Made by a program: the position numbers and the translations under genes. Positions 22,384 through 38,894 of a stretch of 64,000 nt of DNA are shown here, in pieces. Source of the DNA: Candidatus Latescibacterota bacterium (GTDB taxonomy: Bacteria; Latescibacterota; UBA2968; GCA-2709665); contig CAXXXF010000015.1 in the NCBI GenBank assembly GCA_963667175.2, positions 448,001-512,000 on the forward strand, read 5' to 3'. Under the pieces are notes generated by a model. It made no database searches. It worked only from the letters and a program-made list of their open reading frames with translations, and had not been told where the DNA came from. The stretch's first letter is position 1; each line of letters opens with the position of its first letter.

Positions 22384-23547
22384 TCAATACATATGTATAG
22401 CCCCATCCGGTCCCTCGTAGCGGCGCGGGGGCAGGGCCTGGAACGGCCTCGACTTCACCAGATCCATATCCAGTTCCACCCCAAGCCCCGGGCGCCGCTC
22501 CAGTTCGCCGACGTCCACGTATCCGCCCGAAACGGGCACCCGCAGCGTCTGCGCGTCGTCGAACCACGGGCGCAGCCTGCAATGCTCGAGGATCTCGAAA
22601 TTCTGCATCGCGGCCGCCACGTGGGCCGCGGCCGCCAGCGCCACCGGCCCATACGGATTGTGCGGCGCGATCCCGATTCCGTACACCTCGGCGAAATGCG
22701 CCACCTTCATCAGTTCGCTGATGCCCCCCACGTGGCAGATATCCACCTGGCAAACGTCCACCGCCTGCCTTTCGAACCACTCCCGGCACTCCCACCGGGT
22801 GATCCAGCGCTCGCCCGCGGCAACCCGCATTCCCGGGAAGTCCCGTTTCAACCTGACGTACGGCTCAACCGTGCTCTGCTCGATGGGCTCTTCCACGAAG
22901 AGCATGTCCAGCGCCTGCAATTCCCGCATCAGGCGGTGCGCCGCCGCGGGCGAGAACACACCGCCGCAGTCGATCATCAGCGCCGCGTCCGGCCCCAGCG
23001 CCTCCCGCAGCCGGGTCATCTCTCTCACGGCCACGTCCACCTGCGCGTCCATATCGAACGGCGCGACCGCCGGACCGTGTCCGTGCTTGAACGCATCGAA
23101 GCCCTCCTCCAGGGCCTGCGCGGCGTGCGCCTCCAGCGAATCCAGCCCCAGGTCCGCCCGCGCGTAGCAGCGAACCCTGTTTCGAACCCTGCCGCCCAGC
23201 AGCCGGAACACGGGCTGTCCCGTCGCCTTTCCCGCGATGTCCCAGAGCGCCATGTCGATACCGCTGACCGCGCTGGTATGTACCACACCCCGTTTCCACC
23301 AGTAGTCGCGGTATCCCAGTTGCCAGACCTGCTCCACGTCCATTGGATTCATTCCCAGCAGCCTGGGTTTCAGCGCCGTTTCCACCTGCGCAGCGACGGC
23401 CATTTCGTGATGCTCCGTCGTGGCCTCGCCGACCCCCGTGATGCCCGCGTCCGTCTCCACCTCCACGAAGATCCAGTTCCGCCTGGGTGTATGGCCGTCC
23501 GCCGCCGGGATGTTCATGACGTGCGCCCTGATGTCCGCGATCCTCAT
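22384..23547 (-). CDS. Mandelate racemase/muconate lactonizing enzyme family (galactonate dehydratase-like)
   Basis: RNWIFVEVETDAGITGVGE, AVSGIDMALWDI.GK, FVEEP, GER, APHNPYGP. Confidence 0.9.
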   Translation of the reverse strand: MRIADIRAHVMNIPAADGHTPRRNWIFVEVETDAGITGVGEATTEHHEMAVAAQVETALKPRLLGMNPMDVEQVWQLGYRDYWWKRGVVHTSAVSGIDMALWDIAGKATGQPVFRLLGGRVRNRVRCYARADLGLDSLEAHAAQALEEGFDAFKHGHGPAVAPFDMDAQVDVAVREMTRLREALGPDAALMIDCGGVFSPAAAHRLMRELQALDMLFVEEPIEQSTVEPYVRLKRDFPGMRVAAGERWITRWECREWFERQAVDVCQVDICHVGGISELMKVAHFAEVYGIGIAPHNPYGPVALAAAAHVAAAMQNFEILEHCRLRPWFDDAQTLRVPVSGGYVDVGELERRPGLGVELDMDLVKSRPFQALPPRRYEGPDGAIHMY

Positions 23548-23550
23548 CCT

Positions 23551-24780
23551 TCAGCTCTCTTTCTCCATGAACGCCCCCTCCCTTCGGACCCGTTCGCACA
23601 CCCGGGCGAACGCTTCGGTCCCGTCGTCCTCCCAGACCTCGGAGTTCACGCCGCGGATGGACCCCTCCTCGAATCCGGTAAGCCGGCGCACGTCCGGAAT
23701 GCTCGGGGTGTACATCCTGTTTCCGCCGGGCAGGTAGAGCACGCCCACGTGTTTCGGCATCTCCGTGGGTCCCCCCGCCGCCAGGCGCGCGAGCTTCTCT
23801 TCGTCCACGTCGAACCCCAATCCCGGTCCCTCCGGCACCGGCGAACACCCCTCCTCGATATCGATGCGCTCCGTCGTAATGTCCTCCTCGTACTGATCGT
23901 CCAGATTGATCGAATGCCCCGCCGTTGGCAGCACGGCCCCCAGGTGCATGGCCAGCGCCTTCGTCAGGGTGCCCCCGGTGAGTTGCACCACCGCCTGCAC
24001 GTTTGCCTTTCCGTACGCGAAGCCGCGGAACAGCGCGTCTCCGAACCCGCCGCAATACTCGCCGATAATATAGGCGTCCGCCATGCCCATGATCATCTCC
24101 TGCAGCCCGCCCAGCGGGGGCAGGTGCATCACCAGGGGCACGTTGCACTGCGCCCGCAGCCGCCGCCAGCCGTCCACGTCGGTCAGCAGCAGCGGGTCTT
24201 CGATGAACCCCGTGATCCGCGACCGCTCAAGGGCTTTCACGATGGGCAGCACCGTCGCCATGGCCCGGTTGTGGTTCATATCCCACTGCATCAGGAATCC
24301 ATCCGGCGCCACGTCCTCCACCGCGCGTTGCTGTTCGAGCACGTCGAAGTGCTGGCAGGTATGCATCTTGAACAACGTATAGCCCTGGTCCACCGCGCGC
24401 AGGATCTCGTTGCTCAGGTCCTCGGGCGAGGCCGGCCGTGTCCAGGCCATCACCGGCACCCGGTCCCTGACCTTCTGTCCCATCAGCTTGTAGGCGGGGA
24501 TGCCCAGGTGCTTGCCCATCACGTCGTACAGCGCGCCTCCCAGGGCCAGGTGCAACGTCTCATGGTTGAGGAAGTCGAACGGATTCCGGTCGATCAGCTG
24601 CGCCACGCTCTCCTTCGGCGGCGCGGCCGACCGGTAGTCGCCGTAGCCCACGATCCCGTTGTCCGTGACCACTTTGAAAATGGTCCGCTGATCGATAGTG
24701 CGAAACCGCACCTTGTGATCCGCGTTGCGGGCCGCGAGTCCCGGGTTGATCGGGATGATTTCGATATCGACGATTTTCAT
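23551..24780 (-). CDS. Enolase superfamily (MR/MLE) protein
   Basis: VTDNGIVGYG, ALYDVMGK.LG.P.Y.L.G, KMH, D.N, IEDP, PEGPGLGF. Confidence 0.85.
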   Translation of the reverse strand: MKIVDIEIIPINPGLAARNADHKVRFRTIDQRTIFKVVTDNGIVGYGDYRSAAPPKESVAQLIDRNPFDFLNHETLHLALGGALYDVMGKHLGIPAYKLMGQKVRDRVPVMAWTRPASPEDLSNEILRAVDQGYTLFKMHTCQHFDVLEQQRAVEDVAPDGFLMQWDMNHNRAMATVLPIVKALERSRITGFIEDPLLLTDVDGWRRLRAQCNVPLVMHLPPLGGLQEMIMGMADAYIIGEYCGGFGDALFRGFAYGKANVQAVVQLTGGTLTKALAMHLGAVLPTAGHSINLDDQYEEDITTERIDIEEGCSPVPEGPGLGFDVDEEKLARLAAGGPTEMPKHVGVLYLPGGNRMYTPSIPDVRRLTGFEEGSIRGVNSEVWEDDGTEAFARVCERVRREGAFMEKES

Positions 24781-25702: not shown

Positions 25703-25810
25703 AGAAAAACCCCTGGGTGAGAAGGAAGACGCAAAGAAGAACGAAATTCAGATCACACGGAGACACAAAGGCACAATGAAAACCAAGGGGTAAGATTCGG
25801 AACACCGTTC

Positions 25811-25841
25811 AGGCGGGCAACCACAAGGGTTGCCCCTACGA
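25811..25841. repeat. GTAG-type REP palindrome (GTAGGGGCAACCCTTGTGGTTGCCC on the minus strand)
   Basis: GTAG head plus GGGCAACC/GGTTGCCC stem, typical of RAYT-associated REPs. Confidence 0.7.
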
Positions 25842-25990
25842 ATCAGCGGTCAGCATTCGGCCGTCAGCTTGAGTCAAAACCAACCAATTGACGTCAACGC
25901 CATGATTTAGCAGGACCGGAAGAGGCGTTTCGCGGGAAAGATTCGCTCGCTCCGGAAACCTTTCCCCTGGCGCGGTCTCCCCCGGCCGAT

Positions 25991-26398
25991 CTATGGCCTG
26001 ACGTCAAACCCCATCTGCCGGAAGTGATGGTCCAACGTCAACACACGGCTTATTTGCAGTTCCCGCATGAGGACGAAGCTGCAGCAGTCAGTGAAGGAGA
26101 ATTCCTTGTCCCGGTATCCGAAGAAGAGTGCGCGGGCACGTTCTCTTCTCGACGCATCGATCGACTCGATCCTCAGGCGGGATGACCCTTCGATCTGCAC
26201 CCACCAGGCCTCAGCGGCATCGAGACCAAGTCGGGACCGGATGGTTGTCAGCGTCTCGTCGATGACGTAGTCGGACGTCGTCAGCAGACCCCCCGACGAC
26301 AGCCAGTGGTCGCGGGTTTCCCTGACTGCCGACCCCTTCGCATCGCGGCTGTCGGCGGCCGCGACCCATCCCGCGGTATCCACGAACATCTCTTTCAC
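25991..26398 (-). CDS. vapC: VapC PIN-domain toxin
   Basis: FVDT.GW, YVIDET.T, SFTDCCSF..M, TLDHHF. Confidence 0.92.
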   Translation of the reverse strand: MKEMFVDTAGWVAAADSRDAKGSAVRETRDHWLSSGGLLTTSDYVIDETLTTIRSRLGLDAAEAWWVQIEGSSRLRIESIDASRRERARALFFGYRDKEFSFTDCCSFVLMRELQISRVLTLDHHFRQMGFDVRP

Positions 26399-26640
26399 TG
26401 GTACAACACCTCGTCATGCCGCTCGGCGACGTCGCCCGATTCCGACGCACCGACGGGAGGCGCCTGGTAAAGGGGATCCGCCTCGAGTGGTGTGCTTCCC
26501 CGTGGCGGACTGCCGACGGGGACGATGTCGAAAGCAGGCCGACTGCGATAGAGAACGGTAAATCGTTCTCCGTGCCGCACCTTCGCGACAACCTCTTTTA
26601 GCCGCGCGCGGAGCTGTTTGGCATTGATTATCTCTGGCAT
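26395..26640 (-). CDS. Phd/YefM-type antitoxin
   Basis: INAKQLRARL..V..GE.FTV..RSRP; overlaps vapC. Confidence 0.85.
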   Translation of the reverse strand: MPEIINAKQLRARLKEVVAKVRHGERFTVLYRSRPAFDIVPVGSPPRGSTPLEADPLYQAPPVGASESGDVAERHDEVLYQ

Positions 26641-26784
26641 CACGGATCCTTCCTGAAGTTAAACTTAAGATAAACTCTTTTGGCGATGAAAGCAAGACGG
26701 CAGCGCGCAGGCAACGACGATCAGTCGTCAGTTTTCAGCCGTCAGCAAAGATCATTGGGGAAGAAAATCACGCGGCCGCTCCTC

Positions 26785-27342: not shown

Positions 27343-27368
27343 GGGTATTCTCCTTTCGAACGAACCTG

Positions 27369-27397
27369 TTGACAACGCATAGGAAACCATGTATATA
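27369..27397 (+). promoter_or_regulatory. sigma70 promoter of kinase 1 (TTGACA-17-TATATA)
   Basis: Consensus -35 and near-consensus -10; duplicated at 30019-30047. Confidence 0.75.
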
Positions 27398-27510
27398 TCG
27401 CACGCCGGTCGCTGCGGCGCAAGCCAATAAGGTGCGGATGACGCGTCGGCCGGGAATGAGGACGCATGCGCTGACGGACGTGAACGCGGGACAGCAGGCA
27501 AGGAGACGGC

Positions 27511-29901
27511 ATGCAACAAGGCGGCGAAACCGTCCGCGAAGACGGGAGGACCGTCCGTGAAGATGGAGCTACCGTTCGCGAAGACGGGAGGACCGTTCGC
27601 GAATCGTCCGCGTCTCCGTCCGCCGCCCCCGCGCAGGACACGCAGGCGCCCGGATGGCTGCCCGGCGACCTGGCGGCCGACTACCGCGTGATCGAGTCCC
27701 TGCCCGCGCTAGGCGGCGAAGCCGACCTCTACGTCGTCGAGCCACTCGACGCCGAGGATGACACCCGGCGCGTGGCCAAGGTGTACCGCGAGGGCATGGT
27801 TCCCAAGGAGGACGTGCTCAGGCTCGTCAAGCAGGCCGAGCCGGCCCACGTCGTCCGGCTCGAAGCCTACGGGCAGGACGACGGCGCCGGCCGGTGGTGG
27901 GAACTGATGGAGTACGTCGAGCGGGACAGCTTGCGCCAGTTCCTCGATCGAGAAGGACCGAAGCTCTCCGAAGACCTGATACGCGACATTCTCCGGGAAC
28001 TCAACGACGCGCTGACGGACTTGCACCGGCTGCAGCTGGAACATCGTGACCTGAAGCCAGACAACGTCCTGGTGCGCAGCCTCACGCCGCTCGATCTGGT
28101 GATGAGCGACTTTGGCATCGCCTCGATCGTGGAAGGGCCGATGCACTTTACCGGAAGGATGCAGACGGCGATGTATGCGCCGCCCGAAGCCCTCGGCAGC
28201 CAGGCGGTGGTTGAGCACACCAAGTGGGACTACTGGTCGCTGGGGATGATGCTCGTCGAGATGCTGGAGAAGCATCCCTTCAAGGACGTGGAAGACCAGG
28301 CGATCGGCTACCGACTCGTCGTTGAGGACGTTGATGATCTGACCCGGGAAATCTCCGATCCGGCATGGCGGATGCTGTGCCGGGGGTTGCTGCGGCGCAC
28401 GCCGGAGGCTCGTTGGAACGCCGAGGAGGTCTCGAAGTGGCTTGCCGATCCGAACGATCCGGGCCTACGCGTGGCCGAAGAGGCGCCCGGGTCTCCGCCC
28501 GTTGCCGAGCCGTTGCCGGCCACGATCGACTTCGACGGGGCGCGCTACGCCACGCCGGCGGAACTGGGCGCCGCCCTTGCCGAGGACTGGGGCAAGGCCA
28601 AGTCGTACTGGAAGCGACGGTACCCGGACGTGCGCAACTGGGTGACCGACGAGCTCGGGCTGACGCCCCTCGGCGACGCCCTGGCGGACATCGACGACAG
28701 CGGCATGCCCCTCGATACCCAGGTATTCAACTTCATCTATCACCTGGCGCCCGAAGCGCCGTTGCGCTTCCGCGACGAGCGCCTGACCATGGAGGGCCTC
28801 GCCGCGCTTTGCCGGCGGGCGGCGGTTCAGAAAGACGCAGACGCCCGCGATACGTTGCTGAGGCTGTATCGGCAGGGCATTCTGGTACTGGCCGGTTCGC
28901 TGCCGGACGGGGAACCGCTTGCGGAGGCGCAGCGCCGGTGGGAAGACGCCGTCAACGACTACGAACGCCGGCGCAACGAGGCCGGCGCGCGCGTCGAGGC
29001 GATCCCGGCGCCCAACGAAGGCACCCTCGTGGATCTGCTGGCGGGAAGCCTGCCCGTGCCCGAGGTCGTGGACGCCCTCAGGACGCGGGCGCGCCGCGCC
29101 CGCACGGCGAACGCGCGAAGGTGCCCCTGGTTCGCAAGGCTGGGGAAGCCCGAGAACATGCCGGTCAGCGCTCTGGTCCTGCTTCCCCGCCTTCGGTCGC
29201 AGGCGGAGCGAGTGGGCAGACCCCTCAGGATGCGGCCACTTTACGGTTGCATCGGGGGCGTTATCGCCGGCGGCCTGCTCGGACTGCAGGTCATGTGGGC
29301 GCACGTCATGTTCGTCTTCGATCCCCAACACTACCTCTTCCACCCCGTTGCGACCGTGCTGATATCGGTAGCCGTCACCTTCACGTTCTACGGGGCCTTT
29401 GTCTGGGACATTCGCGGCGTCGCCGCGCGGAGGCGCCGGCAAAGCAATACGGCCGACGCGACGCCGCGCAGCGGGCCCATCGGACGAATGATTGACCGTG
29501 GCGGCGCCGGAATCGGCTGCCTGCTGCTCATTGCGATACCGCTCGCCGCCATATTCGCTCTGGCGTTTTTCGTCTTGCTGTTGGTCGTCACCTCGATTCC
29601 ATCCCTCGTCGCCATGGACGCGATCGGGCTGATCGACTTCGGGCTGGAACACTTTCGCGCTCGACGCTCCATGCCGCTGAGTCTCACCGCCGTATCGACG
29701 CCCGATGGCGGCATGCAAACTGTCTTCAACCCGCTCTTCAACGCAACGTTGTACGTCGCGCCGCATGCGATCCTGGGCGCCCTTGTCGGGAGCTTTGCCC
29801 GCCGGCGGTGGGTCATCGCAGCGTCGATCCTGGTATTCCTCGGGCTGGCCGCGGTCGTCATTATCTCGGATCCCAGGTACGTCGGCGCGATGATAGGGTA
29901 G
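27511..29901 (+). CDS. Membrane-anchored Hanks-type Ser/Thr protein kinase 1 (N-terminal TVRE repeats, multi-TM C-terminus), 796 aa
   Basis: GGEADLY, VAKVY, HRDLKPDN, SDFG, YAPPE, DYWSLG; hydrophobic C-terminus; AAGGAG RBS. Confidence 0.92.
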   Translation: MQQGGETVREDGRTVREDGATVREDGRTVRESSASPSAAPAQDTQAPGWLPGDLAADYRVIESLPALGGEADLYVVEPLDAEDDTRRVAKVYREGMVPKEDVLRLVKQAEPAHVVRLEAYGQDDGAGRWWELMEYVERDSLRQFLDREGPKLSEDLIRDILRELNDALTDLHRLQLEHRDLKPDNVLVRSLTPLDLVMSDFGIASIVEGPMHFTGRMQTAMYAPPEALGSQAVVEHTKWDYWSLGMMLVEMLEKHPFKDVEDQAIGYRLVVEDVDDLTREISDPAWRMLCRGLLRRTPEARWNAEEVSKWLADPNDPGLRVAEEAPGSPPVAEPLPATIDFDGARYATPAELGAALAEDWGKAKSYWKRRYPDVRNWVTDELGLTPLGDALADIDDSGMPLDTQVFNFIYHLAPEAPLRFRDERLTMEGLAALCRRAAVQKDADARDTLLRLYRQGILVLAGSLPDGEPLAEAQRRWEDAVNDYERRRNEAGARVEAIPAPNEGTLVDLLAGSLPVPEVVDALRTRARRARTANARRCPWFARLGKPENMPVSALVLLPRLRSQAERVGRPLRMRPLYGCIGGVIAGGLLGLQVMWAHVMFVFDPQHYLFHPVATVLISVAVTFTFYGAFVWDIRGVAARRRRQSNTADATPRSGPIGRMIDRGGAGIGCLLLIAIPLAAIFALAFFVLLLVVTSIPSLVAMDAIGLIDFGLEHFRARRSMPLSLTAVSTPDGGMQTVFNPLFNATLYVAPHAILGALVGSFARRRWVIAASILVFLGLAAVVIISDPRYVGAMIG
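27529..27603 (+). repeat. 21-bp coding tandem repeat (TVREDG[RA])x3.5; paralogous repeat at ~35824-35907
   Basis: ACCGTYCGYGAAGAYGG units. Confidence 0.9.
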
Positions 29902-30018
29902 CGATACCGTTCGCATCCCCTCCCGGAAACACACCCCCAACTGCCCGATTCACGATTCGTCCGGCTCGACCTTCCGCGGAGGCGCAGGGGCTTGCGGCGG
30001 ACCATGTGACCGATCCTG

Positions 30019-30047
30019 TTGACAACGCTGGAAAAACCATGTATATA
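30019..30047 (+). promoter_or_regulatory. sigma70 promoter of the AAA operon (duplicate of 27369-27397)
   Basis: TTGACA-17-TATATA with shared downstream leader. Confidence 0.75.
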
Positions 30048-30162
30048 TCGCAATCCGGTCGCGGTTGCGCAAGCCGAAGCGTGAACGCGAACCCCGGAGC
30101 AGACGCTGTCGGACCGACCTGCTGAAATCGCGGGGCGGTCCTTAACTTCCTCGAGGGTCAAC

Positions 30163-32061
30163 GTGTCGCAGACAACGGAGTCGAACCAAAACAGTACGCC
30201 GGAACAGACCGGCGATGCGCCCGCCGCAATAGACGCGGACGCGTTTCCCCGGTGGCTGCGCCAGCTGGCGCAGTACCTGCCCATCTGCTCGCATTTCGTG
30301 GTTGAGGGAAACATCCGGGACGTGCACCTGGTCCGCAGCGAGGACGGGCTGCTTCTCCAACCGATCGTCAACTGCCTTTGGGAACTGCTTCGCGAGCAGG
30401 GCTGCGAGGGTATCCTCGTCTACGACCGCGTTTCCGGCTTTCGGGTCTTCCCGAACGACCGGCAGCAAGCGATCGAGCAGAAACTCGGGTCCCCCCTGGA
30501 CCGGCCGCTAAGGAACGAGGAGGATATGCTTGACATGCTTCAGGAGCGGCTCTTCGAAGTCTCGGCCGCTCCCGAACTCTTGTGCGCCGTCGTCGTCGAC
30601 TACGCCTCCAGGATCGCCAGGAGAGCGAGCGACCCGCACGAAGCCGAGTACGACTTCTTCGCCGCGTGCCAGAAACTTGCCGACACCACCCACGAACTGC
30701 GCCGGCCCGACGACGGACAGCTGGTGTTCAATCCCGTCGTGTGGCTGGTTGAACGGTCGAACGATCTGCCCGAGTGGTTCGTCGTCGGAAACGACAGAAT
30801 CCGGACGTTGGTCGCCGATATGCCCGACCAGCAGGCCAGGCTCGCGGTCGCGGAGCGACTGGCCCGCGATCTGCCGGGCGTCGACGCGATGAGCGAGCAG
30901 GACCGTTCGAGCGCAACGGACGTGTTCGCGAACCTCACCGACGGATTGACGGTGCGCGCAATGATGCAGATACGCTCGATCACGCGAAGTCAGAACCTGC
31001 CGTTTGCGCAGATATCAGACGCGATTCGCGCCTACCGGGTGGGCATCACCGACAACCCGTGGCGCCAGACCTATCTGTACGATCGCATCCGGTCCGGCGA
31101 CCGCGAAATCACGGCGTCGGTAAAAGGACAGTCTCAGGCGGTGCAGCAGACGCTCGATATTCTCAAGCGGTCGGTTACGGGCCTGACCGCCGCGCAGGCG
31201 TCGAGCTCGGGCAACAAACCCAGGGGCATCCTGTTTTTCGCGGGACCGACCGGGGTCGGCAAGACGGAACTCGCCAAGGCCGTCACGCGCCTGCTCTTCG
31301 GCGACGAGCAGGCCTATATCCGTTTCGACATGAGCGAGTTTTCCGCGGAGCACTCCGAGGCGCGGCTCATCGGCGCGCCACCGGGATACGTGGGATTCGA
31401 CGCCGGGGGGGAACTGGTCAACGCGGTGCGCCAGCGCCCTTTCTCGGTGGTGCTGTTCGATGAAATCGAAAAGGCCCATCCCCAGATACTGGACAAGTTT
31501 CTGCAGATTCTGGACGACGGACGCCTTACGGACGGACGCGGCGACACCGTGTACTTCTCCGAGACGGTCATCATCTTCACGTCGAACCTGGGGATCTACG
31601 TGCGCAATGAGTCGGGAGAACGCGTTCTGAACGTGTCTCAGGACGACGATTACGCGGAGGTCTCCAGGAGGATACACGAGGCCATACAGGACCACTTCAG
31701 GTTCGAGCTTCAGCGTCCGGAACTGCTGAACCGGATCGGAGACAACATCGTGGTCTTCGACTTCATCCGCCCCGAACTCGCGCACCTGATCATGGACAAG
31801 ATGCTCGGCAACGTGGTCGAGCGGGTGCAGGACGAGCACGACGTGACACTGGAGATTAGCGAGCGGGCGCATGCGACCCTCGTGGAGCAATGCCTGGGCG
31901 ACCTGACCCACGGCGGACGGGGAATCGGGAACCGGTTGGAGACGGTGCTCATCAACCCGCTGGCGCGGGCCCTGTTCGACGTTGAATTGACGGCGGGACA
32001 GACCATTACAGTGGAACAACTCGCCGAGGAAGACGGGATCTTCAAGGTGACGCTCGCATGA
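30163..32061 (+). CDS. ClpA/ClpB-like AAA+ ATPase (D2 module only, with a divergent N-terminal domain)
   Basis: FAGPTGVGKTELAK, RFDMSEF, LIGAPPGYVGF, LFDEIEKAH, RPELLNRI. Confidence 0.9.
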   Translation: MSQTTESNQNSTPEQTGDAPAAIDADAFPRWLRQLAQYLPICSHFVVEGNIRDVHLVRSEDGLLLQPIVNCLWELLREQGCEGILVYDRVSGFRVFPNDRQQAIEQKLGSPLDRPLRNEEDMLDMLQERLFEVSAAPELLCAVVVDYASRIARRASDPHEAEYDFFAACQKLADTTHELRRPDDGQLVFNPVVWLVERSNDLPEWFVVGNDRIRTLVADMPDQQARLAVAERLARDLPGVDAMSEQDRSSATDVFANLTDGLTVRAMMQIRSITRSQNLPFAQISDAIRAYRVGITDNPWRQTYLYDRIRSGDREITASVKGQSQAVQQTLDILKRSVTGLTAAQASSSGNKPRGILFFAGPTGVGKTELAKAVTRLLFGDEQAYIRFDMSEFSAEHSEARLIGAPPGYVGFDAGGELVNAVRQRPFSVVLFDEIEKAHPQILDKFLQILDDGRLTDGRGDTVYFSETVIIFTSNLGIYVRNESGERVLNVSQDDDYAEVSRRIHEAIQDHFRFELQRPELLNRIGDNIVVFDFIRPELAHLIMDKMLGNVVERVQDEHDVTLEISERAHATLVEQCLGDLTHGGRGIGNRLETVLINPLARALFDVELTAGQTITVEQLAEEDGIFKVTLA

Positions 32062-32708
32062 AAATCCGGCTCAACAAGGCGCACTTTCCGGTGACAACGC
32101 TGGGTTACGGGCGCCGGCTCGGGCTGTGGGTGCAGGGGTGCGGCATCGGATGCAAGGGCTGCGTGTCCCGCGACACGTGGGATCCCCGCGGCGGATGGGA
32201 AGTCGACGTGACGGAGGTCCTCGCGTGGTGTGATTCGCGGCGAACGCTCGGCATCGACGGGATGACCATCAGCGGCGGCGAACCGTTCGAGCAGCCCGGG
32301 GCGCTGAAACGGCTGCTTGAAGCGCTCGACGCGTGGCGGCAGGGGCTTGAACGACCGTTCGACGTACTTTGCTACAGCGGCCTGCCGCTTGCCAGAATCA
32401 GGCGCCGCCACGCCGGCGCGCTCGCCTTTGTCGACGCGCTCATCCCGGAGCCCTACGTCGCCGGCCGCCCGGCGTCCGGTCCGTTGAAGGGTTCGAGCAA
32501 CCAGCCTCTGGTTCCACTGACGGCGCTCGGCCGGACGCGCTACGGGGACGAGGCGCAACACGCAGGGGACGCGCCACGCATCCAGGTCAGCGTCGAGCGC
32601 GGCGCCGCCTGGTTCATTGGCATCCCCGGGCCCGGCGATATGGAAAAACTGGAGGAATTTGCCCGGGCAAGGGGCGTGGTGATGGAGGACGTATCGTGGC
32701 GCGCGTGA
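32058..32708 (+). CDS. Radical SAM / 4Fe-4S protein (NrdG activase-like)
   Basis: WVQGCGIGCKGC (CxxxCxxC), GMTISGGEPFEQ, LKGSSNQ; ATGA overlap with the AAA gene. Confidence 0.88.
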   Translation: MKIRLNKAHFPVTTLGYGRRLGLWVQGCGIGCKGCVSRDTWDPRGGWEVDVTEVLAWCDSRRTLGIDGMTISGGEPFEQPGALKRLLEALDAWRQGLERPFDVLCYSGLPLARIRRRHAGALAFVDALIPEPYVAGRPASGPLKGSSNQPLVPLTALGRTRYGDEAQHAGDAPRIQVSVERGAAWFIGIPGPGDMEKLEEFARARGVVMEDVSWRA

Positions 32709-33316
32709 AAGTCTGCAGGTTGTGCGGGCAACACAGCGGCCCCGACGAATTGTTCTGCACGGCGGCCGACTGCGGCACGTCGCTGGCCGACGTGAGCGCC
32801 GTCGACAGCAGCGAGATTGAGCGCATGGCCGCTGAAGCCGAGGCCGAGTCAGCCGACGGCGGCGGTGACGAAGGCCGCGACGTCCAAAGCGGCGCGGCCG
32901 GAAACGGCGCGGCCGAGACCAGCGGCGCGGAAGGCCCCCAACCGGCCCCCGGCACGGCCGGACAAACGGTGCGAGACGTCCAGGCGGCGCCCTGCGCGCT
33001 GGTTTTCCCCTGGGGCCGCGTATCCATTGCCGGTCGATTGGGCGTGGGCCGCGACACGGGATTTTCTCAAATCAGCAGGCAATTGGACGCCTATCCGACG
33101 GTCTCCAGGCAACACGCCGTGGTCAGCGCGGCGCAGGGCCGATGGACGGTTCGGGACGAGGGCTCCACCAATGGGACCTACGTAAACGGCGCGCGGCTCG
33201 CGCAGGGCGAGACCAGGGCGATTCAAAACGGCGACCAGGTCGGTTTCTCGCGGGGATTGCAGGTTGGCGTCGAGATCGCGACAACGGGAGACGCGAGTGG
33301 CGCATCCGGACAATGA
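32696..33316 (+). CDS. Zinc-ribbon + FHA domain protein (GTG start at 32696)
   Basis: CRLC..CTAADC; FHA motifs VGR, VSRQHA, D.GSTNGTYVNG; GGAGGA RBS. Confidence 0.88.
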   Translation: MARVKVCRLCGQHSGPDELFCTAADCGTSLADVSAVDSSEIERMAAEAEAESADGGGDEGRDVQSGAAGNGAAETSGAEGPQPAPGTAGQTVRDVQAAPCALVFPWGRVSIAGRLGVGRDTGFSQISRQLDAYPTVSRQHAVVSAAQGRWTVRDEGSTNGTYVNGARLAQGETRAIQNGDQVGFSRGLQVGVEIATTGDASGASGQ

Positions 33317-34079
33317 CGCTCGGGAAGACGGCAGGGCGACGCTGGAGGTCACGGCAATCACCCACCGGGGGCGCGTCCGCGCCCACAACGAAGACACGAT
33401 CGTCGTCGGCAACTGGATTTGCGGCGATTCCATGGACGAGCCGCGCCAGTTCGAACACGACGCCTCGCTGACGACGCTGTTGCTTGTCGCCGACGGCATG
33501 GGCGGTCACGTCGCCGGGCGGGAGGCGAGCCGGCGCGCGGCGCGAGCGATGGTCCGACTGCTTCCGGGCGATACCGGCGCGGGTGAGCCTGAAATTGCGG
33601 ACGCATTGCGGGCGGCCAACCGGGAGGTGTTTGACGCCGCCGCCGAGGATCCGGCGCTCAAGGGCATGGGCACGACCGTGGCCGGGCTGGTCGTGACGTC
33701 CGACCGGACGATCTGGTTCAACGTCGGCGACAGCCGGGTCTACAGCGTCAGGCAGGAGTTCCTGCGCCAGCTCAGCGTGGATGACGTCCCGGCCTGGCAG
33801 GGCGCCGGCGGTCACGTGATCACGCAGGCACTGGGCGGCGCGCACGCGTACGTCGAGGTCAATCCGCACGTCGGCGCCCTGACGACCGCACCCGGGCGAC
33901 GTTACCTGCTTTGCAGCGACGGCCTGACCGACGTCGTGCCGATGGATGCGATGGAGCGCGCCCTGGCGGACGACGACCTCAGCTTTGTCGGCGAACTCCT
34001 CGACGGCGCATTGGCCGCGGGGGGGCCGGACAACGTCTCGATCGTCGCGGCCCGAATTCGACGCGACGGCCAGGAATAG
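33297..34079 (+). CDS. PP2C/PPM family Ser/Thr phosphatase
   Basis: GRVRAHNED, VADGMGGH..G..AS, GMGTT, NVGDSRVY, LLCSDGL, GGPDNVS. Confidence 0.95.
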   Translation: MAHPDNDAREDGRATLEVTAITHRGRVRAHNEDTIVVGNWICGDSMDEPRQFEHDASLTTLLLVADGMGGHVAGREASRRAARAMVRLLPGDTGAGEPEIADALRAANREVFDAAAEDPALKGMGTTVAGLVVTSDRTIWFNVGDSRVYSVRQEFLRQLSVDDVPAWQGAGGHVITQALGGAHAYVEVNPHVGALTTAPGRRYLLCSDGLTDVVPMDAMERALADDDLSFVGELLDGALAAGGPDNVSIVAARIRRDGQE

Positions 34080-34183
34080 CGTCGCAGGCGCCCGGAAGCC
34101 TGCGCGTGCCCGAAGTCGTGAACGCCCCAGGGTCGGGGACGTCCCGCGCGATCGAGTCGAACGGAGTCAGGAGTTGAACAGGT

Positions 34184-35788
34184 ATGAGCGCTCCTTACGT
34201 AAGTTACGAGGTCTGGATCAACGGTCTGCTGGCGGCCAGCCGGTTTGAGGCCCTCGCAAAACGCGCCCACGCGCTGTGTGCGGAGTTGAGCGAAATCGCG
34301 GAGCGTTGGCAGAAGGCCAGGGACCATTACGGCGAAGATTGCCCGGCCTGGTCCTATGGAGACACTGAGTTGCCGGCCTCCGTCCGCAATCTTCTTGCCG
34401 GCGGTGAACTCGCCGGGCGCGCGGCGAAAGTGGAAGAGACGCGATTTCGGGAGTATTCCAGTGAAGAGGCCGGATCGCGGGCTCTCTGGAACCAGATGGA
34501 AGTGGATTTGGGCGACCTGGAGAATGTCCTGAAAGAGGAGGGGGCTTCCCCCAAGCTGGCCGGGCGCGTGACGAAATTGATGAATGGTCCGAAGGTTTCC
34601 AGTGATTTTGCCGACCGTGTGGCCAAAGACCTGAAGGCGCAGGGGGTTTCCGGTGATCTTCCCGAGTATATAGCCGAAGTGCTGAAAGCGGGGGGTGGGC
34701 GGCGTTTGGCGAAAAAACTGGAATCAACGCGAATGGGGGACACGTTCGGGGCTACCGGCGGCGAGTTGGAAGCCGTCGCCCGTGACGTCAGTGAGTTGGA
34801 AGCCTTCGTCCGAGATCTTGCCGGACGCGTGGGGAAAGCCAAACGGGAGCACGCGCAATTCAACGTACGAAAATCGTTGCAGGCGACCGCACAGGAGGCG
34901 GCTACCCGTGCCGCGAGCCTGGAGGAGCGGAGAGAGAGAGAGGAAGCGGACAAGGCCGGGAGAGAGGAGCGCGAAAGGCGTCGTATTTCCGAACAGGTCT
35001 TCGGTCTGGTCGAGAGCCTGACGGCAGAGGTCTCGCCCCTGGACAGGACCGCCATCGCGCAACGGGCGCGGGAGGCGGTCGAATCGACGCAGGTTTCCCG
35101 TCGCCGGGCCCTGCTGACCCAGCTGCATCTCGACGTTCGGCGAGCCAACGAGGCGGGACGAGCGCGGCAACGCCGCGTCGATCAGGTGGAGCAATGGCGC
35201 CAGCGACTCATGGGGCTTGAAGGGCCGGAGGTCGAAGAACTGGACGAAACGCTTCGGCGAGTTGTCGACGAGGAGGGGCCGCTGCCGCAAGACGCGGCGC
35301 AAAGGGTCGAGAGCGTCGTCGCCCGGGCGACCGAGGCCGCCAATCGCGCTTATGCGTTGGGCGTCATATCGGAGGAACTGGAGAACCTGGGATACGTCGT
35401 GGAAGCCGACTTTGAAACGGCCTCGGAACAGGCGCCGGAAATGCTGCTTCGCAAGCCGGACATGGAAGACGATTACCTCGTGTCGTTGCGAGCCGAGGCG
35501 GCCGGGCTGCGCAACCGCGTGGTTCGCGAGGCCGACGATCCCGGCGAACGAAGCGCGGGTCGCGAGCGGACGGATCAGGAAACGGAACGCGCCTGGTGCG
35601 AGGACCTCGCCGCGGCCCTGGCCGCGGCGGAGCATAAAGGGGTTCGCGGGCGAGCCGTAGAACGCATGGAACCCGGCGCGGCGCCCGTCCCGACCATTGC
35701 CCCATTGAAGGGCAAACCCAGGTCCACGCGCAGGAGCAGGCGCAGGCGTGAGCGGACCGGTCGACAGGAGTCGCGGGTCCGTCGTTGA
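34184..35788 (+). CDS. Uncharacterised coiled-coil protein, 534 aa
   Basis: Long ORF with AGGAG RBS; E/R/A-rich helical core; LEnLGY.V and E..WC motifs near the C-terminus. Confidence 0.75.
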   Translation: MSAPYVSYEVWINGLLAASRFEALAKRAHALCAELSEIAERWQKARDHYGEDCPAWSYGDTELPASVRNLLAGGELAGRAAKVEETRFREYSSEEAGSRALWNQMEVDLGDLENVLKEEGASPKLAGRVTKLMNGPKVSSDFADRVAKDLKAQGVSGDLPEYIAEVLKAGGGRRLAKKLESTRMGDTFGATGGELEAVARDVSELEAFVRDLAGRVGKAKREHAQFNVRKSLQATAQEAATRAASLEERREREEADKAGREERERRRISEQVFGLVESLTAEVSPLDRTAIAQRAREAVESTQVSRRRALLTQLHLDVRRANEAGRARQRRVDQVEQWRQRLMGLEGPEVEELDETLRRVVDEEGPLPQDAAQRVESVVARATEAANRAYALGVISEELENLGYVVEADFETASEQAPEMLLRKPDMEDDYLVSLRAEAAGLRNRVVREADDPGERSAGRERTDQETERAWCEDLAAALAAAEHKGVRGRAVERMEPGAAPVPTIAPLKGKPRSTRRSRRRRERTGRQESRVRR

Positions 35789-35814
35789 ACTCCTTACATG
35801 GCAAGGAGACGCCA

Positions 35815-37830
35815 TTGCAACAAGGCGGGACCACCGTCCGCGAAGGCGGGACCACCGTCCGTGAAAGCGGGACCACCGTCCGCGAAGGCGGGACCACCGT
35901 CCGCGAAGCGCCCGCGTCTCCGTCCGCCGCCCCCGCGCAGGACACGCAGGCGCCCGGATGGCTGCCCGGCGACCTGGCGGCCGACTACCGCGTGATCGAG
36001 TCCCTGCCCGCGCGAGGCGCCGAAGCCGACCTCTACGTCGTCGAGCCGCTCGACGCCGAGGATGACACCCGGCGCGTGGCCAAGATTTACCGCGAGGGCA
36101 TGGCGCCCAAGGAGGACGTGCTCAGCCTCGTGAAACAGGCCGAGCCGGCCCACGTCGTCCGGCTCGAAGCCTACGGGCAGGACGCCGGCGCCGGCCGGTG
36201 GTGGGAACTGATGGAGTACGTCGAGCGGGACAGCTTGCGCCAGCTCCTCGATCGAGAAGGACCGAAGCTCTCCGAAGACCTGATACGCGACATTCTCCGG
36301 GAACTCAACGACGCGCTGACGGACTTGCACCGGCTGCAGCTGGAACATCGTGACCTGAAGCCAGACAACGTCCTGGTGCGCAGCCTCACGCCGCTCGATC
36401 TGGTGATGAGCGACTTTGGCATCGCCTCGGTCGTGGAAGGGCCGAGGCACTATACCGAAAGGATGCAGACGGTGATGTATGCGCCGCCCGAGGCCTTCGC
36501 CAGCAAGGCGGTGGTTGAGCACACCAAGTGGGACTACTGGTCGCTGGGGATGATGCTCGTCGAAATGCTGGAGAAGCATCCCTTCAAGGACGTGGAAGAC
36601 CAGGCGACCAGCTTCCGAATCATCAGTGATGACGTTAATGATCTGACCCGGGAAATCTCCGATCCGGCCTGGCGGATGCTGTGCCGGGGGTTGCTGCGGC
36701 GCACGCCGGAGGCTCGTTGGAACGCCGAGGAGGTGTCGAAGTGGCTTGCCGATCCGAACGATCCGGGCCTACGCGTGGCCGAAGAGGCGTCCGGGTCTCC
36801 GCCCGTTGCCGAGCCGTTGCCGGCCACGATCGACTTCGACGGCGCCAGCTACGCCACAACGGCGGAACTGGGCGCCGCCCTGGCCGAGGACTGGGGCAAG
36901 GCCGAGTCGTACTGGATGCGCCGGTACCGGGACGTGCGCGACTGGGTGACCGACGGGCTTGGGCTGACGCCCCTCGGCGACGCCCTGGCGGACATCGACG
37001 ACAGCGGCATGCCCCTCGATTTCCAGGTATTCAACTTCATCTATCACCTGGCGCCCGAAGCGCCGTTGCGCTTCCGCGACGAGCGCCTGACCATGGAGGG
37101 CCTCGCCGCGCTTTGCCGGCGGGCGGCGGTTCAGGAAGACGCCGACGCCCGCGAAACGTTGCTGAGGCTGTATCGGCATGGCATTCTGCTACTGGCCGGT
37201 TCGCTGCCGGACGGGGAAGCCCTGGCCGACGTGGCGCAGCGGTGGGTAGACGCCGTCGACGACTATGAACGCCGGCGATCCCGGTTCTTGGAGCAAGGCA
37301 TCGACGTGCCCGACGCGGACGACGACGTGATCGTCCTTCTGCTGGCGGGAAGCCTGCCCGTGCCCGAGGTCGTGGACGCCCTCAGGGCCCAGGCCCGCCG
37401 CGCCCGCACCGCGGACGCGCGCAGGTGCCTCTGGTTCAAAGAGCTGGGCGCCCCCGAGGAGATGGCGGTCCCCGTGCTGGCCGTGCTTCCCCATCTTCAG
37501 GCCCCGGCCGGGCGAGAGGGCAGAATCATTCGATGGCGGCCCCTCCGCGGTTGCATCGGGGGCCTCATCGTCGGCGGCCTGTGGGGGTGGCAGGTGCAAT
37601 GGGCGATGGAGCGACGCGGAGATTTCGGGATCCACAGTTTCGGAGGCTTCTTTGACCTCTGGGAGGGCGTGATATTGCTGGCATTGGTGGTCAAAGCCTT
37701 TCGCGTGGCCCTTGCCTGGTACCTCGAAGGTTGGAAAGGCGCGCGGCAGGCCTGGCGCAGGAGAGGCGTGGTGAGGAGGGGAGCAGCGCGGATCCATGAA
37801 CTGTTGACGTATCAAAGTGGCGGTGAGTAA
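35815..37830 (+). CDS. Ser/Thr protein kinase 2, paralog of 27511..29901 (TTG start at 35815)
   Basis: Same catalytic motifs; AAGGAG RBS homologous to kinase 1; shorter TM C-terminus. Confidence 0.92.
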   Translation: MQQGGTTVREGGTTVRESGTTVREGGTTVREAPASPSAAPAQDTQAPGWLPGDLAADYRVIESLPARGAEADLYVVEPLDAEDDTRRVAKIYREGMAPKEDVLSLVKQAEPAHVVRLEAYGQDAGAGRWWELMEYVERDSLRQLLDREGPKLSEDLIRDILRELNDALTDLHRLQLEHRDLKPDNVLVRSLTPLDLVMSDFGIASVVEGPRHYTERMQTVMYAPPEAFASKAVVEHTKWDYWSLGMMLVEMLEKHPFKDVEDQATSFRIISDDVNDLTREISDPAWRMLCRGLLRRTPEARWNAEEVSKWLADPNDPGLRVAEEASGSPPVAEPLPATIDFDGASYATTAELGAALAEDWGKAESYWMRRYRDVRDWVTDGLGLTPLGDALADIDDSGMPLDFQVFNFIYHLAPEAPLRFRDERLTMEGLAALCRRAAVQEDADARETLLRLYRHGILLLAGSLPDGEALADVAQRWVDAVDDYERRRSRFLEQGIDVPDADDDVIVLLLAGSLPVPEVVDALRAQARRARTADARRCLWFKELGAPEEMAVPVLAVLPHLQAPAGREGRIIRWRPLRGCIGGLIVGGLWGWQVQWAMERRGDFGIHSFGGFFDLWEGVILLALVVKAFRVALAWYLEGWKGARQAWRRRGVVRRGAARIHELLTYQSGGE

Positions 37831-38216
37831 TGCATTACCTGATCATTGCCGTATTGGTGCTGGCGCTGCTGGCCGTGATATTGGTCCTCACGAGCGTGTT
37901 GGGATTCGTGGCAGCCGGAGTCACCGTTCCATCCGTTTTCGCAATGATCCTGCTTGGCCTTGTGGGGCTGACCGATCCCACGTGGCCGCATGCTCTCCTG
38001 GGCGCCGCCGTCGGCGCCTGTGCTCACCTCGCGCACCCGTACTTCCGAAAGGCCCGCCGATGGCCGTTCACAGAGGCGGTGGTCCGGCTCCGGACGCGCC
38101 TGACTGGCCGGTGGTGGGGCTATGCGATCCTGATTCTATTGTTGCTCATCATGGCGAGGCTGGCGATGGCGCTGTTGGTCGTTGCGATGTCTCTTCAGGA
38201 GCTTCTGCTCACGTAG
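37830..38216 (+). CDS. Small integral membrane protein, homologous to the C-terminal TM part of kinase 1
   Basis: TAATG coupling to kinase 2; PHALLGAAVG vs PHAILGALVG in kinase 1. Confidence 0.7.
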   Translation: MHYLIIAVLVLALLAVILVLTSVLGFVAAGVTVPSVFAMILLGLVGLTDPTWPHALLGAAVGACAHLAHPYFRKARRWPFTEAVVRLRTRLTGRWWGYAILILLLLIMARLAMALLVVAMSLQELLLT

Positions 38217-38436
38217 TGGAGATTTGCCGGGCTTTCCCGCGTTCCATCCTGATCTCCAGCCATTGCCCTCCCCTGCTGTTCCGTCCCAAAAATACCTTTC
38301 CATTCTACCGCCTGCCTGCGCGGGGCCCTGCGCTGCAGGCAGGCCGATTCATCCCGTCTCGCAACGTTGCGCGCCACCTCGAAGGCCGCCGGGTTGCGGA
38401 CCTCCTGCTGATCTCCACGGCGGCGGCCATCCTTTA

Positions 38437-38491
38437 GCAGCCCGTTGAAAAAGTCCATCCGGGCTGCGGAGCGACTTTTTCAACGGACTGT
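38437..38491. mobile_element. 55-bp MITE (internally deleted version of 56447-56655)
   Basis: Terminal IRs GCAGCCCGTTGAAAAAGTC / GACTTTTTCAACGGACTGT. Confidence 0.7.
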
Positions 38492-38894
38492 CAGGCGCGG
38501 GCTATGGTTGCAAAACGCGCCGTACGTTGCAACATGCAACCCATTTGAGGTGGCGCGCGCCAAACTTCCCCATCGGTCTCCCGATAAACGTCCACTTCTA
38601 TTGATTTCTCAACCGCGCAATCGATCGCCGATATCCCAAGCCCGACGTATTGCGCAACACGCCCTCTGCGTGCGAACCCATCGTAACCGTTCTAACCGTT
38701 CCATATTCGACAATTTACCCGTTTTCTCAAAGATCGGCACGGTTTTTGTATGTATTCGAGAGTCCTCGATCCGGCCGTATGGCGCGAGGTGACACGCTTC
38801 CGGACGGGCGCCGTGCGGTCAGCCCTCATGGAAACCCGTGCGTACGCCGCACGCTTTCCAATTGGCAGACGACGTCGTCCATGGGAGGGAAACC

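Follow-up and report, generated by a model that had tools for sequence, protein, structure and literature searches.

Kinase, FHA and PP2C proteins are encoded together in two described settings, the PpkA/Fha1/PppA trio of the type VI secretion system (T6SS) and the TerY-phosphorylation (TerY-P) triad, the latter reportedly described by Anantharaman, Iyer and Aravind, and in both the trio is encoded with machinery that it presumably gates. Several other described systems share single components with the locus reported here or with a sister subtype of it: the ATPases ClpB, Hsp104 and ClpV, the activating enzymes NrdG and PflA, and, among systems modelled in PADLOC, Dodola (DolA plus the ClpB-like DolB), the candidates PDC-M37 and PDC-S37, Hhe (said to have been described by Gao et al. 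in 2020) and Mokosh, for which the models of some MkoA forms include a kinase domain. The locus lies in a 64,000-nt window (the whole stretch of DNA that was analysed) from Candidatus Latescibacterota bacterium (assembly GCA_963667175.2, contig CAXXXF010000015.1, positions 448,001-512,000, forward strand), within an inserted island of about 11.4 kb (27357..38790). It encodes two Hanks-type Ser/Thr kinases (K1 and K2), a tandem AAA+ ATPase, a radical SAM (rSAM) enzyme, a Zn-ribbon-FHA protein, a PP2C phosphatase, a coiled-coil (CC) protein and a small membrane protein. The locus is a rearranged, kinase-duplicated member of an undescribed mobile multi-gene system, and the role that we rate highest, at about even odds, is that of a new phospho-switched system for conflict or defence, of the abortive-infection type.

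Searches of model libraries and literature did not recover the gene set. In PADLOC-DB v2.0.0 the rSAM, FHA, PP2C, CC and small membrane proteins matched none of the families, and the kinases and the ATPase gave only generic, domain-level matches (mad6, PD-T4-6 and MkoA; PDC-M37B and DolB). No description of the set was found in the literature, supplementary files, which could list such neighbourhoods, lying outside the search; the relevant passages of PMC7159879, PMC10853773 and bioRxiv 10.64898/2026.10.19.760177 do not describe it. An earlier, sequence-only reading of this DNA had known no characterised system of this composition and had proposed a PADLOC check, which returned no match at the level of a system.

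At least 573 relatives of the rSAM protein were found in species-representative genomes by a scan with the rSAM alignment, and gene order was counted in the best 80 loci. An AAA gene was located upstream of the rSAM gene in 65 of the 80 (58 of 66 where 2.5 kb or more was available on that side) and within 300 bp in 55, a kinase gene was located downstream in 71 (67 of 72 where there was room), and both were present beside the rSAM gene in 57. Directly upstream of the AAA gene, usually with a 4-bp overlap, was an open reading frame (ORF) of 350-470 amino acids (aa) starting with MSGP, and the CC, AAA and rSAM genes were translationally coupled in most loci. When full-length relatives of the ATPase were collected instead, the top 10 of the 80 loci kept matched along the entire protein, the remaining 70 being mostly matches to the ClpB D2 region only, and the rSAM gene adjoined the AAA gene in five of those 10. 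In the closest relatives the canonical order was CC-AAA-rSAM-ZnFHA-PP2C-kinase-membrane protein, from which the window departs by having the CC gene relocated between the PP2C and K2 genes and an extra kinase gene, with its own promoter-like copy, in front. The constant core, which is conserved across phyla, consists of an MSGP coiled-coil protein, a tandem AAA+ ATPase, an NrdG/PflA-type rSAM enzyme and a Hanks kinase that either bears a Zn-ribbon or is supplied with one. Dozens of genomes, belonging to several phyla, show this synteny, which speaks against an accidental clustering of the genes, and the conserved gene neighbourhood that the sequence-only reading had named as a check was thus recovered.

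All eight ORFs of the window locus are on the + strand, to which the gene coordinates below refer; they occupy 27511-38216, have a third-position G+C content of 0.72-0.85, and carry the domains assigned to them in the sequence-only reading, with which Pfam and NCBIfam agree. The gene overlap it reported was likewise present, as an ATGA between the AAA and rSAM genes, a GTG over the rSAM stop, an overlap of the FHA and PP2C genes and a TAATG between the K2 and membrane protein genes; the intergenic gaps measured 261 nt (K1-AAA), 104 nt (PP2C-CC) and 26 nt (CC-K2). K1 (796 aa, 27511..29901) and K2 (35815..37830, in the canonical kinase position) scored 103.1 bits (2.2e-29) and 106 bits (2.9e-30) with the Pkinase model, for which the Pfam cut-off is 31.7 bits (FHA, 20.7; PP2C_2, 24). 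Both contain VAK, HRDLKPDN and DFG, in accordance with what we take to be the defining motifs of Hanks kinases (the catalytic Lys in VAxK, HRDxKxxN, DFG). K1 bears four TVRE(D/S) repeats at its N-terminus (about 27526-27603), then a middle domain, helical and conserved, and hydrophobic segments at residues 577-595, 608-627, 663-710 and 765-792. K2 is built alike, from four TTVRE repeats (about 35827-35907) and the middle domain, and ends in a transmembrane hairpin. The K2 frame is open from TTG 35785, its likely start being TTG 35815, which is preceded by an AAGGAG ribosome-binding site identical to that of K1. With 79% identity over 645 aa and a synonymous divergence (dS) of 0.12, the two kinases are recent paralogues; their dN/dS of about 0.8, with open frames and catalytic motifs kept, indicates either relaxed or diversifying selection. 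Of the two, it is K2 that the kinases of the closest loci resemble most, at 54-64% identity.

The reader and eraser of the trio are also intact. The FHA gene (32696..33316) encodes a Zn-ribbon (CxxC...CxxxxC), a low-complexity linker and an FHA domain (59.5 bits, 4.4e-16), and has two candidate GTG starts: 32696, which is served by a GGAGGA ribosome-binding site, and 32705, which overlaps the rSAM stop. The domain carries GR, SRQH and NG, presumably the residues that bind phospho-threonine, and is assigned to the FHA readers. The PP2C gene (33297..34079, frame open from TTG 33264) encodes a Ser/Thr phosphatase that matches PP2C_2 (53.8 bits) with its catalytic motifs intact; it reached 141 bits with the Stp1-type model against an equivalog cut-off of 230, and by these scores it is classed as a PPM member, not an Stp1 orthologue. 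As in T6SS and TerY-P, therefore, an intact kinase-FHA-PP2C trio is encoded with the machinery it presumably gates. Unlike in those systems, the genes gated here would be those of an AAA+ ATPase, an rSAM enzyme and a coiled-coil protein, the FHA protein has a Zn-ribbon that is elsewhere fused to the kinase, and the kinase itself has Thr repeats that look like a docking site.

The relationship between Zn-ribbon, FHA and kinase was seen most clearly across loci. An N-terminal Zn-ribbon (C-x2-4-C ... C-x2-C) was present on 57 of 71 kinases, and none of those 57 loci had an FHA gene; the other 14 kinases lacked the ribbon, and an FHA gene was found near all 14 (these loci are mutually related and the counts not independent, spanning Proteobacteria, Actinobacteria, Acidobacteriota, Bacteroidia and others). 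Among the 14 ribbon-less kinases, 12 had three or more T-x-x-[D/E] motifs in a stretch of 45 aa. The motif reads TVRE in the window and in the loci nearest to it, and TRLD or TRRDE elsewhere, and an Actinoplanes locus has six GTTRDAAP repeats. The FHA ORFs carried a Zn-ribbon themselves in 14 of 16 homologues, and a PP2C gene was usually present in loci with a separate Zn-ribbon-FHA protein. FHA domains are known to prefer pT-x-x-D. Because the Zn-ribbon is either fused to the kinase or found on an FHA protein, and the Thr repeats usually occur in the second case, the split suggests that phosphorylated Thr repeats recruit the Zn-ribbon through the FHA domain, by a reversible, PP2C-erasable tether in place of a covalent fusion. 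The writer, reader and eraser logic of the sequence-only reading is reinforced by this perfect split.

Membrane attachment is a further feature of the kinases. C-terminal hydrophobic segments, one or two in number and with a short tail, were found in 65 of 72 kinases, which have almost no external loop; the kinases therefore look tail-anchored rather than built as receptors, and the membrane sensing once proposed for them is doubtful. Kinase residues 330-681 (middle domain and C-terminal transmembrane region) gave no usable match in the Atlas, and the middle-domain alignment matched PDB profiles only at E>=0.14. The small membrane protein (128 aa, 37830..38216), whose gene overlaps that of K2, has no Pfam family; homologues were found by tblastn at the same position in loci L092-L094, and by eye also in L098 and L099. 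The extra C-terminus of K1 resembles it (12 of 26 identities, E 0.002, with a common PHAxLGAxVG...RRW motif), and may possibly have come from a fusion of the kinase gene with that of the membrane protein.

The ATPase (632 aa, 30163..32061) matched AAA_2 (167 bits) and ClpB_D2-small, and its second half is of ClpB-D2 type, with a GPTGVGKT Walker A, a VVLFDEIEKAH Walker B, a GYVG pore loop and a D2-small domain (the ATPase and rSAM motifs used here being those we take to be diagnostic). It had been described from the sequence alone as D2-only, a view that has to be revised, since residues of about 26-307 are predicted to fold as a classical AAA+ domain (D1) without a Walker A. An AlphaFold AF2 model of residues 1-310, made with 27 sequences, reached a pLDDT of 85.2 and a pTM of 0.80, and 468 of at least 500 Foldseek matches to it had E<=1e-3; the matches listed were all AAA+ proteins, with TM-scores of about 0.4-0.5, led by Rubisco activase, proteasomal Rpt subunits, p97 D1, Vps4, Trip13 and Msp1. 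Among the family, GK[ST] occurred in one of 27 N-domains, away from the P-loop site, and Walker A and Walker B of D2 were present in 27 of 27. Because an AAA+ fold is matched and Walker A is missing at the P-loop position, the protein is modelled as a tandem AAA+ ATPase with a nucleotide-dead D1. Sequence profiles of the N-domain were less informative: the match to its own D2 was confined to the cut junction, PDB sequences were matched at E 0.1-0.7 and the ClpB alignment at E 0.036. In a set of 1.84 billion the N-domain profile matched 1552 cluster representatives at E<=1e-3, 908 at E<=1e-10 and 368 at E<=1e-30, and the source names of relatives were only 'AAA family ATPase', 'chaperone' or 'ClpB'. 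As in ClpB, Hsp104 and ClpV, a classical-clade AAA+ fold stands in front of a D2, which aligns with ClpB positions 560-845 of 853; unlike them, the locus ATPase has neither N-domain nor M-domain nor a D1 Walker A, is encoded with an rSAM enzyme, and scores 274.6 bits against a ClpB equivalog cut-off of 1232.1. Dodola and PDC-M37 also have a ClpB-like AAA+ component, and the DolB and PDC-M37B models match the AAA core, but these matches cover only the P-loop core (residues 302-476 or 357-476) and none of the eight proteins matches the DolA or PDC-M37A model.

The rSAM protein (216 aa, 32058..32708; Fer4_12 71.5 bits, 1.1e-19) is of the glycyl-radical-activase type. Its best NCBIfam model was NrdG (64.8 bits against a cut-off of 126.1, positions 13-151 of 154), followed by PflA (46 bits) and QueE (15.8 bits), and the best PDB matches of the family profile were PFL-activating enzyme (3.5e-11) and then QueE (1.3e-5). 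Since PFL-activating enzyme is the best solved relative, with QueE next, the protein is predicted to be an activase type directed at proteins, with a substrate that is probably encoded in the cluster. CxxxCxxC, DTW and GGEPF were invariant in the family, which has a specific C-terminal extension of about 65 aa. Thus, like NrdG and PflA, the enzyme spans the NrdG length and has CxxxCxxC and GGE; unlike them, it falls below both equivalog cut-offs, carries the extension, has an AAA+ ATPase and a kinase as constant neighbours, and is found in a genome where no glycyl-radical enzyme was detected. In this genome (95% complete) searches for Gly_radical and NrdD gave no match, the controls being positive in three and six genomes, respectively, so that even a PflA-type activase in the wider sense has no glycyl-radical substrate matched there; the missing partner first noted for the window extends to the whole genome. 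A prokaryotic viperin is not indicated either, the protein having no PADLOC family match and NrdG and PflA as its best models.

The island is accessory in its host. By DNA comparison it was missing from genomes of the same genus, and in five of five complete ones both flanks were syntenic, the left to about 27356 and the right from about 38790-38860, with only 275-760 bp between them; relative to these genomes the locus is a clean 11.4-kb insertion. The left backbone comprises MR_MLE and DHDPS genes, a PIN/Phd pair and a glyoxalase gene, and the right backbone begins with a decarboxylase gene. The AAA protein was found in one of 61 relatives' genomes, namely that of the window, and not in 14 same-genus, seven same-family, 31 same-order and eight same-class genomes; the system rSAM was present in five of 168 genomes and two of 49 genera of the phylum. 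For a flanking backbone gene the best matches (85-88%) were in metagenome-assembled genomes (MAGs) labelled Latescibacterota or Gemmatimonadota. The island rSAM was 67-78% identical in MAGs labelled Latescibacterota, Acidobacteriota, Vicinamibacterales, Rhodospirillaceae and Gammaproteobacteria, and in the two closest genomes the AAA protein was 85% identical, against 75-76% for the backbone decarboxylase. Because the rSAM identity crosses phyla and the AAA protein is more alike than the backbone decarboxylase, the pattern of identities indicates horizontal spread of the island genes. Copies with stops inside the rSAM gene are decaying: two of the five copies in the phylum (G190 and G201) have an internal TAG, and a copy in a gammaproteobacterial MAG (L099:10001-13168) has an in-frame stop in its rSAM gene and about 2 kb between the rSAM and FHA genes.

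An indirect link to conflict is provided by a sister subtype, in which a kinase-DUF4011-SF1 helicase-REase protein of about 2080 aa follows the AAA and rSAM genes; three loci among 90 (in Bradyrhizobium, in Pseudomonas and in a proteobacterial MAG) have this arrangement. A plasmid of Rhizobium leguminosarum shows it too: its AAA and rSAM genes are followed by one for a 2086-aa protein with Pkinase, DUF4011, AAA_11/12 and REase_MTES_1575 domains, which matched PDC-S37 (462 bits), Hhe (217 bits) and MkoA (157 bits) in PADLOC, and the next ORF resembles the CC C-domain. A co-directional series of genes on an Aristaeella (Clostridia) plasmid specifies a DUF4011 helicase-REase (PDC-S37 838 bits, Hhe 370 bits), a kinase, a hypothetical protein, an FHA protein, the rSAM, the AAA, a PP2C, a DUF6273 protein and a second kinase. 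The likeness to Hhe, PDC-S37 and MkoA is thus one of the sister subtype; Hhe and PDC-S37 are each modelled as a single gene that has no AAA, rSAM or CC partner, and the window proteins differ from them in having no DUF4011, helicase or REase and in kinases whose C-termini are membrane segments. Defence systems typically keep a core constant and exchange what is attached to it, here a membrane module for a nuclease. Because the helicase-nuclease replaces the membrane anchor in the sister subtype, the evidence points to the C-terminal part of the kinase as an effector, rather than to sensing kinases with AAA, CC and rSAM effectors. One of 59 viral-contig relatives of the rSAM lay with its AAA gene beside terminase, portal and head-morphogenesis genes, the AAA protein there being full-length and 37% identical. 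The conflict module suggested earlier has indirect support from its accessory status, a patchy presence in Undibacterium (16 of 61 genomes), nine plasmid records (seven of them from Rhizobium), near-identical copies across phyla, the effector swap and the one phage contig; the defence-island enrichment named as a check was not found.

Several observations weigh against a role in conflict and against a mobile, obligatory module. PADLOC families gave 12 rows among 124 flank ORFs, against 23 among 96 control ORFs (E<=1e-10; 31 non-redundant system loci and 24 housekeeping clpB control loci each contributed the two closest ORFs from either flank, by a crude ORF calling that let a few system genes leak into the flank set). 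No match was found in 50,697 phage records; the flanks in the window are metabolic genes; no integrase was seen at the island, and no direct or inverted repeats of at least 11 nt and no att-like repeats were found at its ends. The plasmid matches were mostly megaplasmids. Radical SAM enzymes are oxygen-labile, with which the many hosts that are aerobes by name are at odds. Finally, rSAM-kinase pairs also exist without an AAA (or CC) gene nearby, and the AAA family also occurs alone in Clostridia, so the CC-AAA-rSAM machine is not obligatory.

A scheme for a conflict system that accommodates the observed gene content, folds and motifs, synteny, accessory status and Zn-ribbon/FHA split would run as follows. 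The tail-anchored kinase would be the switch and, once active, would autophosphorylate its N-terminal Thr-x-x-Glu/Asp repeats, on whose phospho-threonines the Zn-ribbon-FHA protein would dock, rebuilding the Zn-ribbon-kinase unit of the simpler, one-polypeptide versions; the PP2C phosphatase would reset the switch. The assembled kinase/Zn-ribbon unit would control the CC-AAA-rSAM machine, in which the ATPase may unfold or open a protein substrate for hydrogen-atom abstraction by the rSAM enzyme. The output would be damage to the cell or the invader, by way of the membrane-embedded kinase C-terminus and the small membrane protein in the window subtype, and of the helicase-nuclease in the sister subtype. 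In its most specific form, the proposal is of a new immune or conflict class with a protein-directed rSAM enzyme as its catalytic heart, a dedicated AAA+ unfoldase, a radical or otherwise irreversible modification placed on the CC protein or on a phage or host protein, arming by phospho-Thr and FHA, and interchangeable outputs (membrane damage or helicase-nuclease); in that form we consider it rather doubtful.

The same genes could instead form a physiological, membrane-associated, phospho-regulated module for protein remodelling or repair, or for envelope or redox stress signalling, in which the AAA+ ATPase and rSAM enzyme mature or repair a host protein, an explanation that we judge unlikely and yet take seriously. 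Kinase/FHA/PP2C triads regulate ordinary physiology too, and the D1 fold is nearest to remodelling AAA+ proteins such as Rubisco activase. The unenriched flanks and the metabolic neighbours in the window fit such a role, as does the fact that about a quarter of the sampled Undibacterium-genus genomes (16 of 61) carry the system, with the same downstream gene in Undibacterium-labelled loci. It is harder to square with a sporadic distribution that crosses phyla at high identity, with the clean insertion in the window genome, with the decaying rSAM copies and the phage-borne one, and with the linkage or fusion of the sister subtype to a helicase-nuclease that matches the models of anti-phage Hhe and PDC-S37; nor was a conserved client gene found outside the cluster.

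A client inside the cluster is the subject of a second alternative, which concerns the CC protein (534 aa, 34184..35788). As the sequence-only reading had it, this is an unfamiliar coiled-coil protein, having no Pfam family and no Foldseek match in the PDB at E<=1e-3; in the Atlas only 'hypothetical protein' clusters were found. The family has a conserved MSGP N-terminus, long helices and a C-terminal alpha/beta domain (LGY..E, Y.V, RWC, G..PV), and the AlphaFold AF2 model (pLDDT 74.7) comprised long helices and a small three-stranded sheet plus helix. M1, S2, W471, C472, G403, G486 and G498 were invariant in the alignment, and G3 and P4 were present in at least 90% of sequences; over the remainder, which includes a variable helical middle, the 25 homologues mostly reached no more than 17-25% identity, and the closest two 48-60%. 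The ORF on the Rhizobium plasmid is a candidate homologue, its C-domain being matched by hhalign with probability 80 (E 1.3e-5). Candidates in Aristaeella (probability 5.8) and on the phage contig (4.3) were set aside, as they are suggestive by position and motif only.

According to the second alternative, the cluster would place radicals or modifications on proteins, and chiefly on its own CC protein: the AAA+ ATPase would thread this protein from MSGP or open its C-domain, the rSAM enzyme would install the radical or the modification, and the kinase would do no more than gate the step. The rSAM scores are activase-like (NrdG and PflA far above QueE, and PFL-activating enzyme first in the PDB), the genome has no glycyl-radical enzyme match for such an activase to serve, the three genes are coupled in most loci, and the extreme N-terminus, the Trp-Cys pair and three Gly of the C-domain are conserved despite the low overall identity. 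Set against this are the empty genome-wide Gly_radical search combined with the lack of a Pfam family for the CC protein, the MSAP start of the window protein (Ala, not Gly, at position 3), the rSAM-kinase pairs without CC or AAA nearby, and the absence of a structural analogue of the C-domain among those searched. We hold this to be improbable as the whole account; it could be combined with either a conflict or a physiological role.

That the trio is the regulatory part of a secretion or tellurite-type system (T6SS PpkA/PppA/Fha or TerY-P), lying by chance beside unrelated genes, can be dismissed as already contradicted and hardly credible: the same three signalling domains are there, but no VipB/TssC sheath gene was matched in the 95%-complete genome (control positive), the ClpV model gave 219 bits against 885, no vWA or Ter domain was found in the eight locus proteins, in line with what had been read from the window, and the kinase gene keeps its synteny with the AAA, rSAM and CC genes from phylum to phylum.

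The boundaries and surroundings of the locus were also examined. A promoter-like 68-nt repeat (TTGACA, 17-nt spacer, TATATA) is located 5' of the K1 gene (27358..27425, + strand), and a second copy, 82% identical, 5' of the AAA gene (30008..30075, + strand). The start of the locus had been placed at 27369, which is not a gene start and lies inside the first copy. A consensus promoter scan passed the repeat over, since it accepts only T as the sixth base of the -10 hexamer. A 42-nt stretch (29974-30015) that runs from just before the second copy into it matched one unrelated place in a same-genus genome at 98% identity. Short intergenic repeats at 38273-38370, 38434-38494 and 25739-25959 have many copies (75-100% identity) across same-genus genomes and look REP- or MITE-like (repetitive extragenic palindromes or miniature inverted-repeat transposable elements), the one at 38434-38494 being a hairpin (GTTGAAAAAGTC ... 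GACTTTTTCAAC); a repeat element just downstream of the genes had been anticipated. The VapBC pair reported upstream is real, consisting of overlapping genes for a PIN toxin (135 aa) and a Phd/YefM-type antitoxin (82 aa) at 25991-26643 on the - strand. It is not part of the locus, since same-genus genomes without the island keep it at the same place, which assigns it to the backbone outside the island. Farther to the left, a pair of neighbouring MR_MLE (enolase-superfamily) genes and, after them, a DHDPS-family gene (22384-24780, - strand) have the appearance of sugar-acid or amino-acid catabolism, and one gene of the trio has a second copy, about 68% identical, elsewhere in each same-genus genome.

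In other genomes, a Candidatus Aalborgicola MAG has a CC-AAA pair without an rSAM gene (L001:8819-14218), followed by two further genes whose N-termini look by eye RtcB- and PrfH-like, by motifs that we take to mark those proteins; the same genome holds a separate rSAM-kinase pair (L163). Candidate defence-type genes, recognised by eye from N-terminal sequences alone and unconfirmed, were seen next to or inside three loci: type I restriction-modification subunits (L102:372-6447), a helicase with Abi-like small genes (L115:3713-8792) and a DUF559-like endonuclease (L152:9502-9897).

Every part of the system comes from a well-studied superfamily, and the conserved combination (a dead-D1/ClpB-D2 ATPase, an activase-type rSAM enzyme without a genomic glycyl-radical enzyme, an MSGP coiled-coil protein and a Zn-ribbon kinase) was in no model library searched and turned up in none of the literature searches made. 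The family is not rare, as the 1552 representatives of the AAA N-domain (E<=1e-3) and the at least 573 rSAM relatives indicate. To judge by record titles, carriers that can be cultured include Undibacterium pigrum DSM 19792, Ottowia thiooxydans DSM 14619, Rhizobium leguminosarum, a Pseudomonas sp., Actinoplanes and Amycolatopsis, and bench testing is therefore feasible. If the phospho-dependent tether is real, it would illustrate clearly how, in nature, a link that depends on phosphorylation can take the place of a covalent domain fusion. If the system serves defence, radical chemistry on proteins would join the known immune chemistries; if it does not, it would point to an unknown client for activase-type rSAM enzymes in aerobes.

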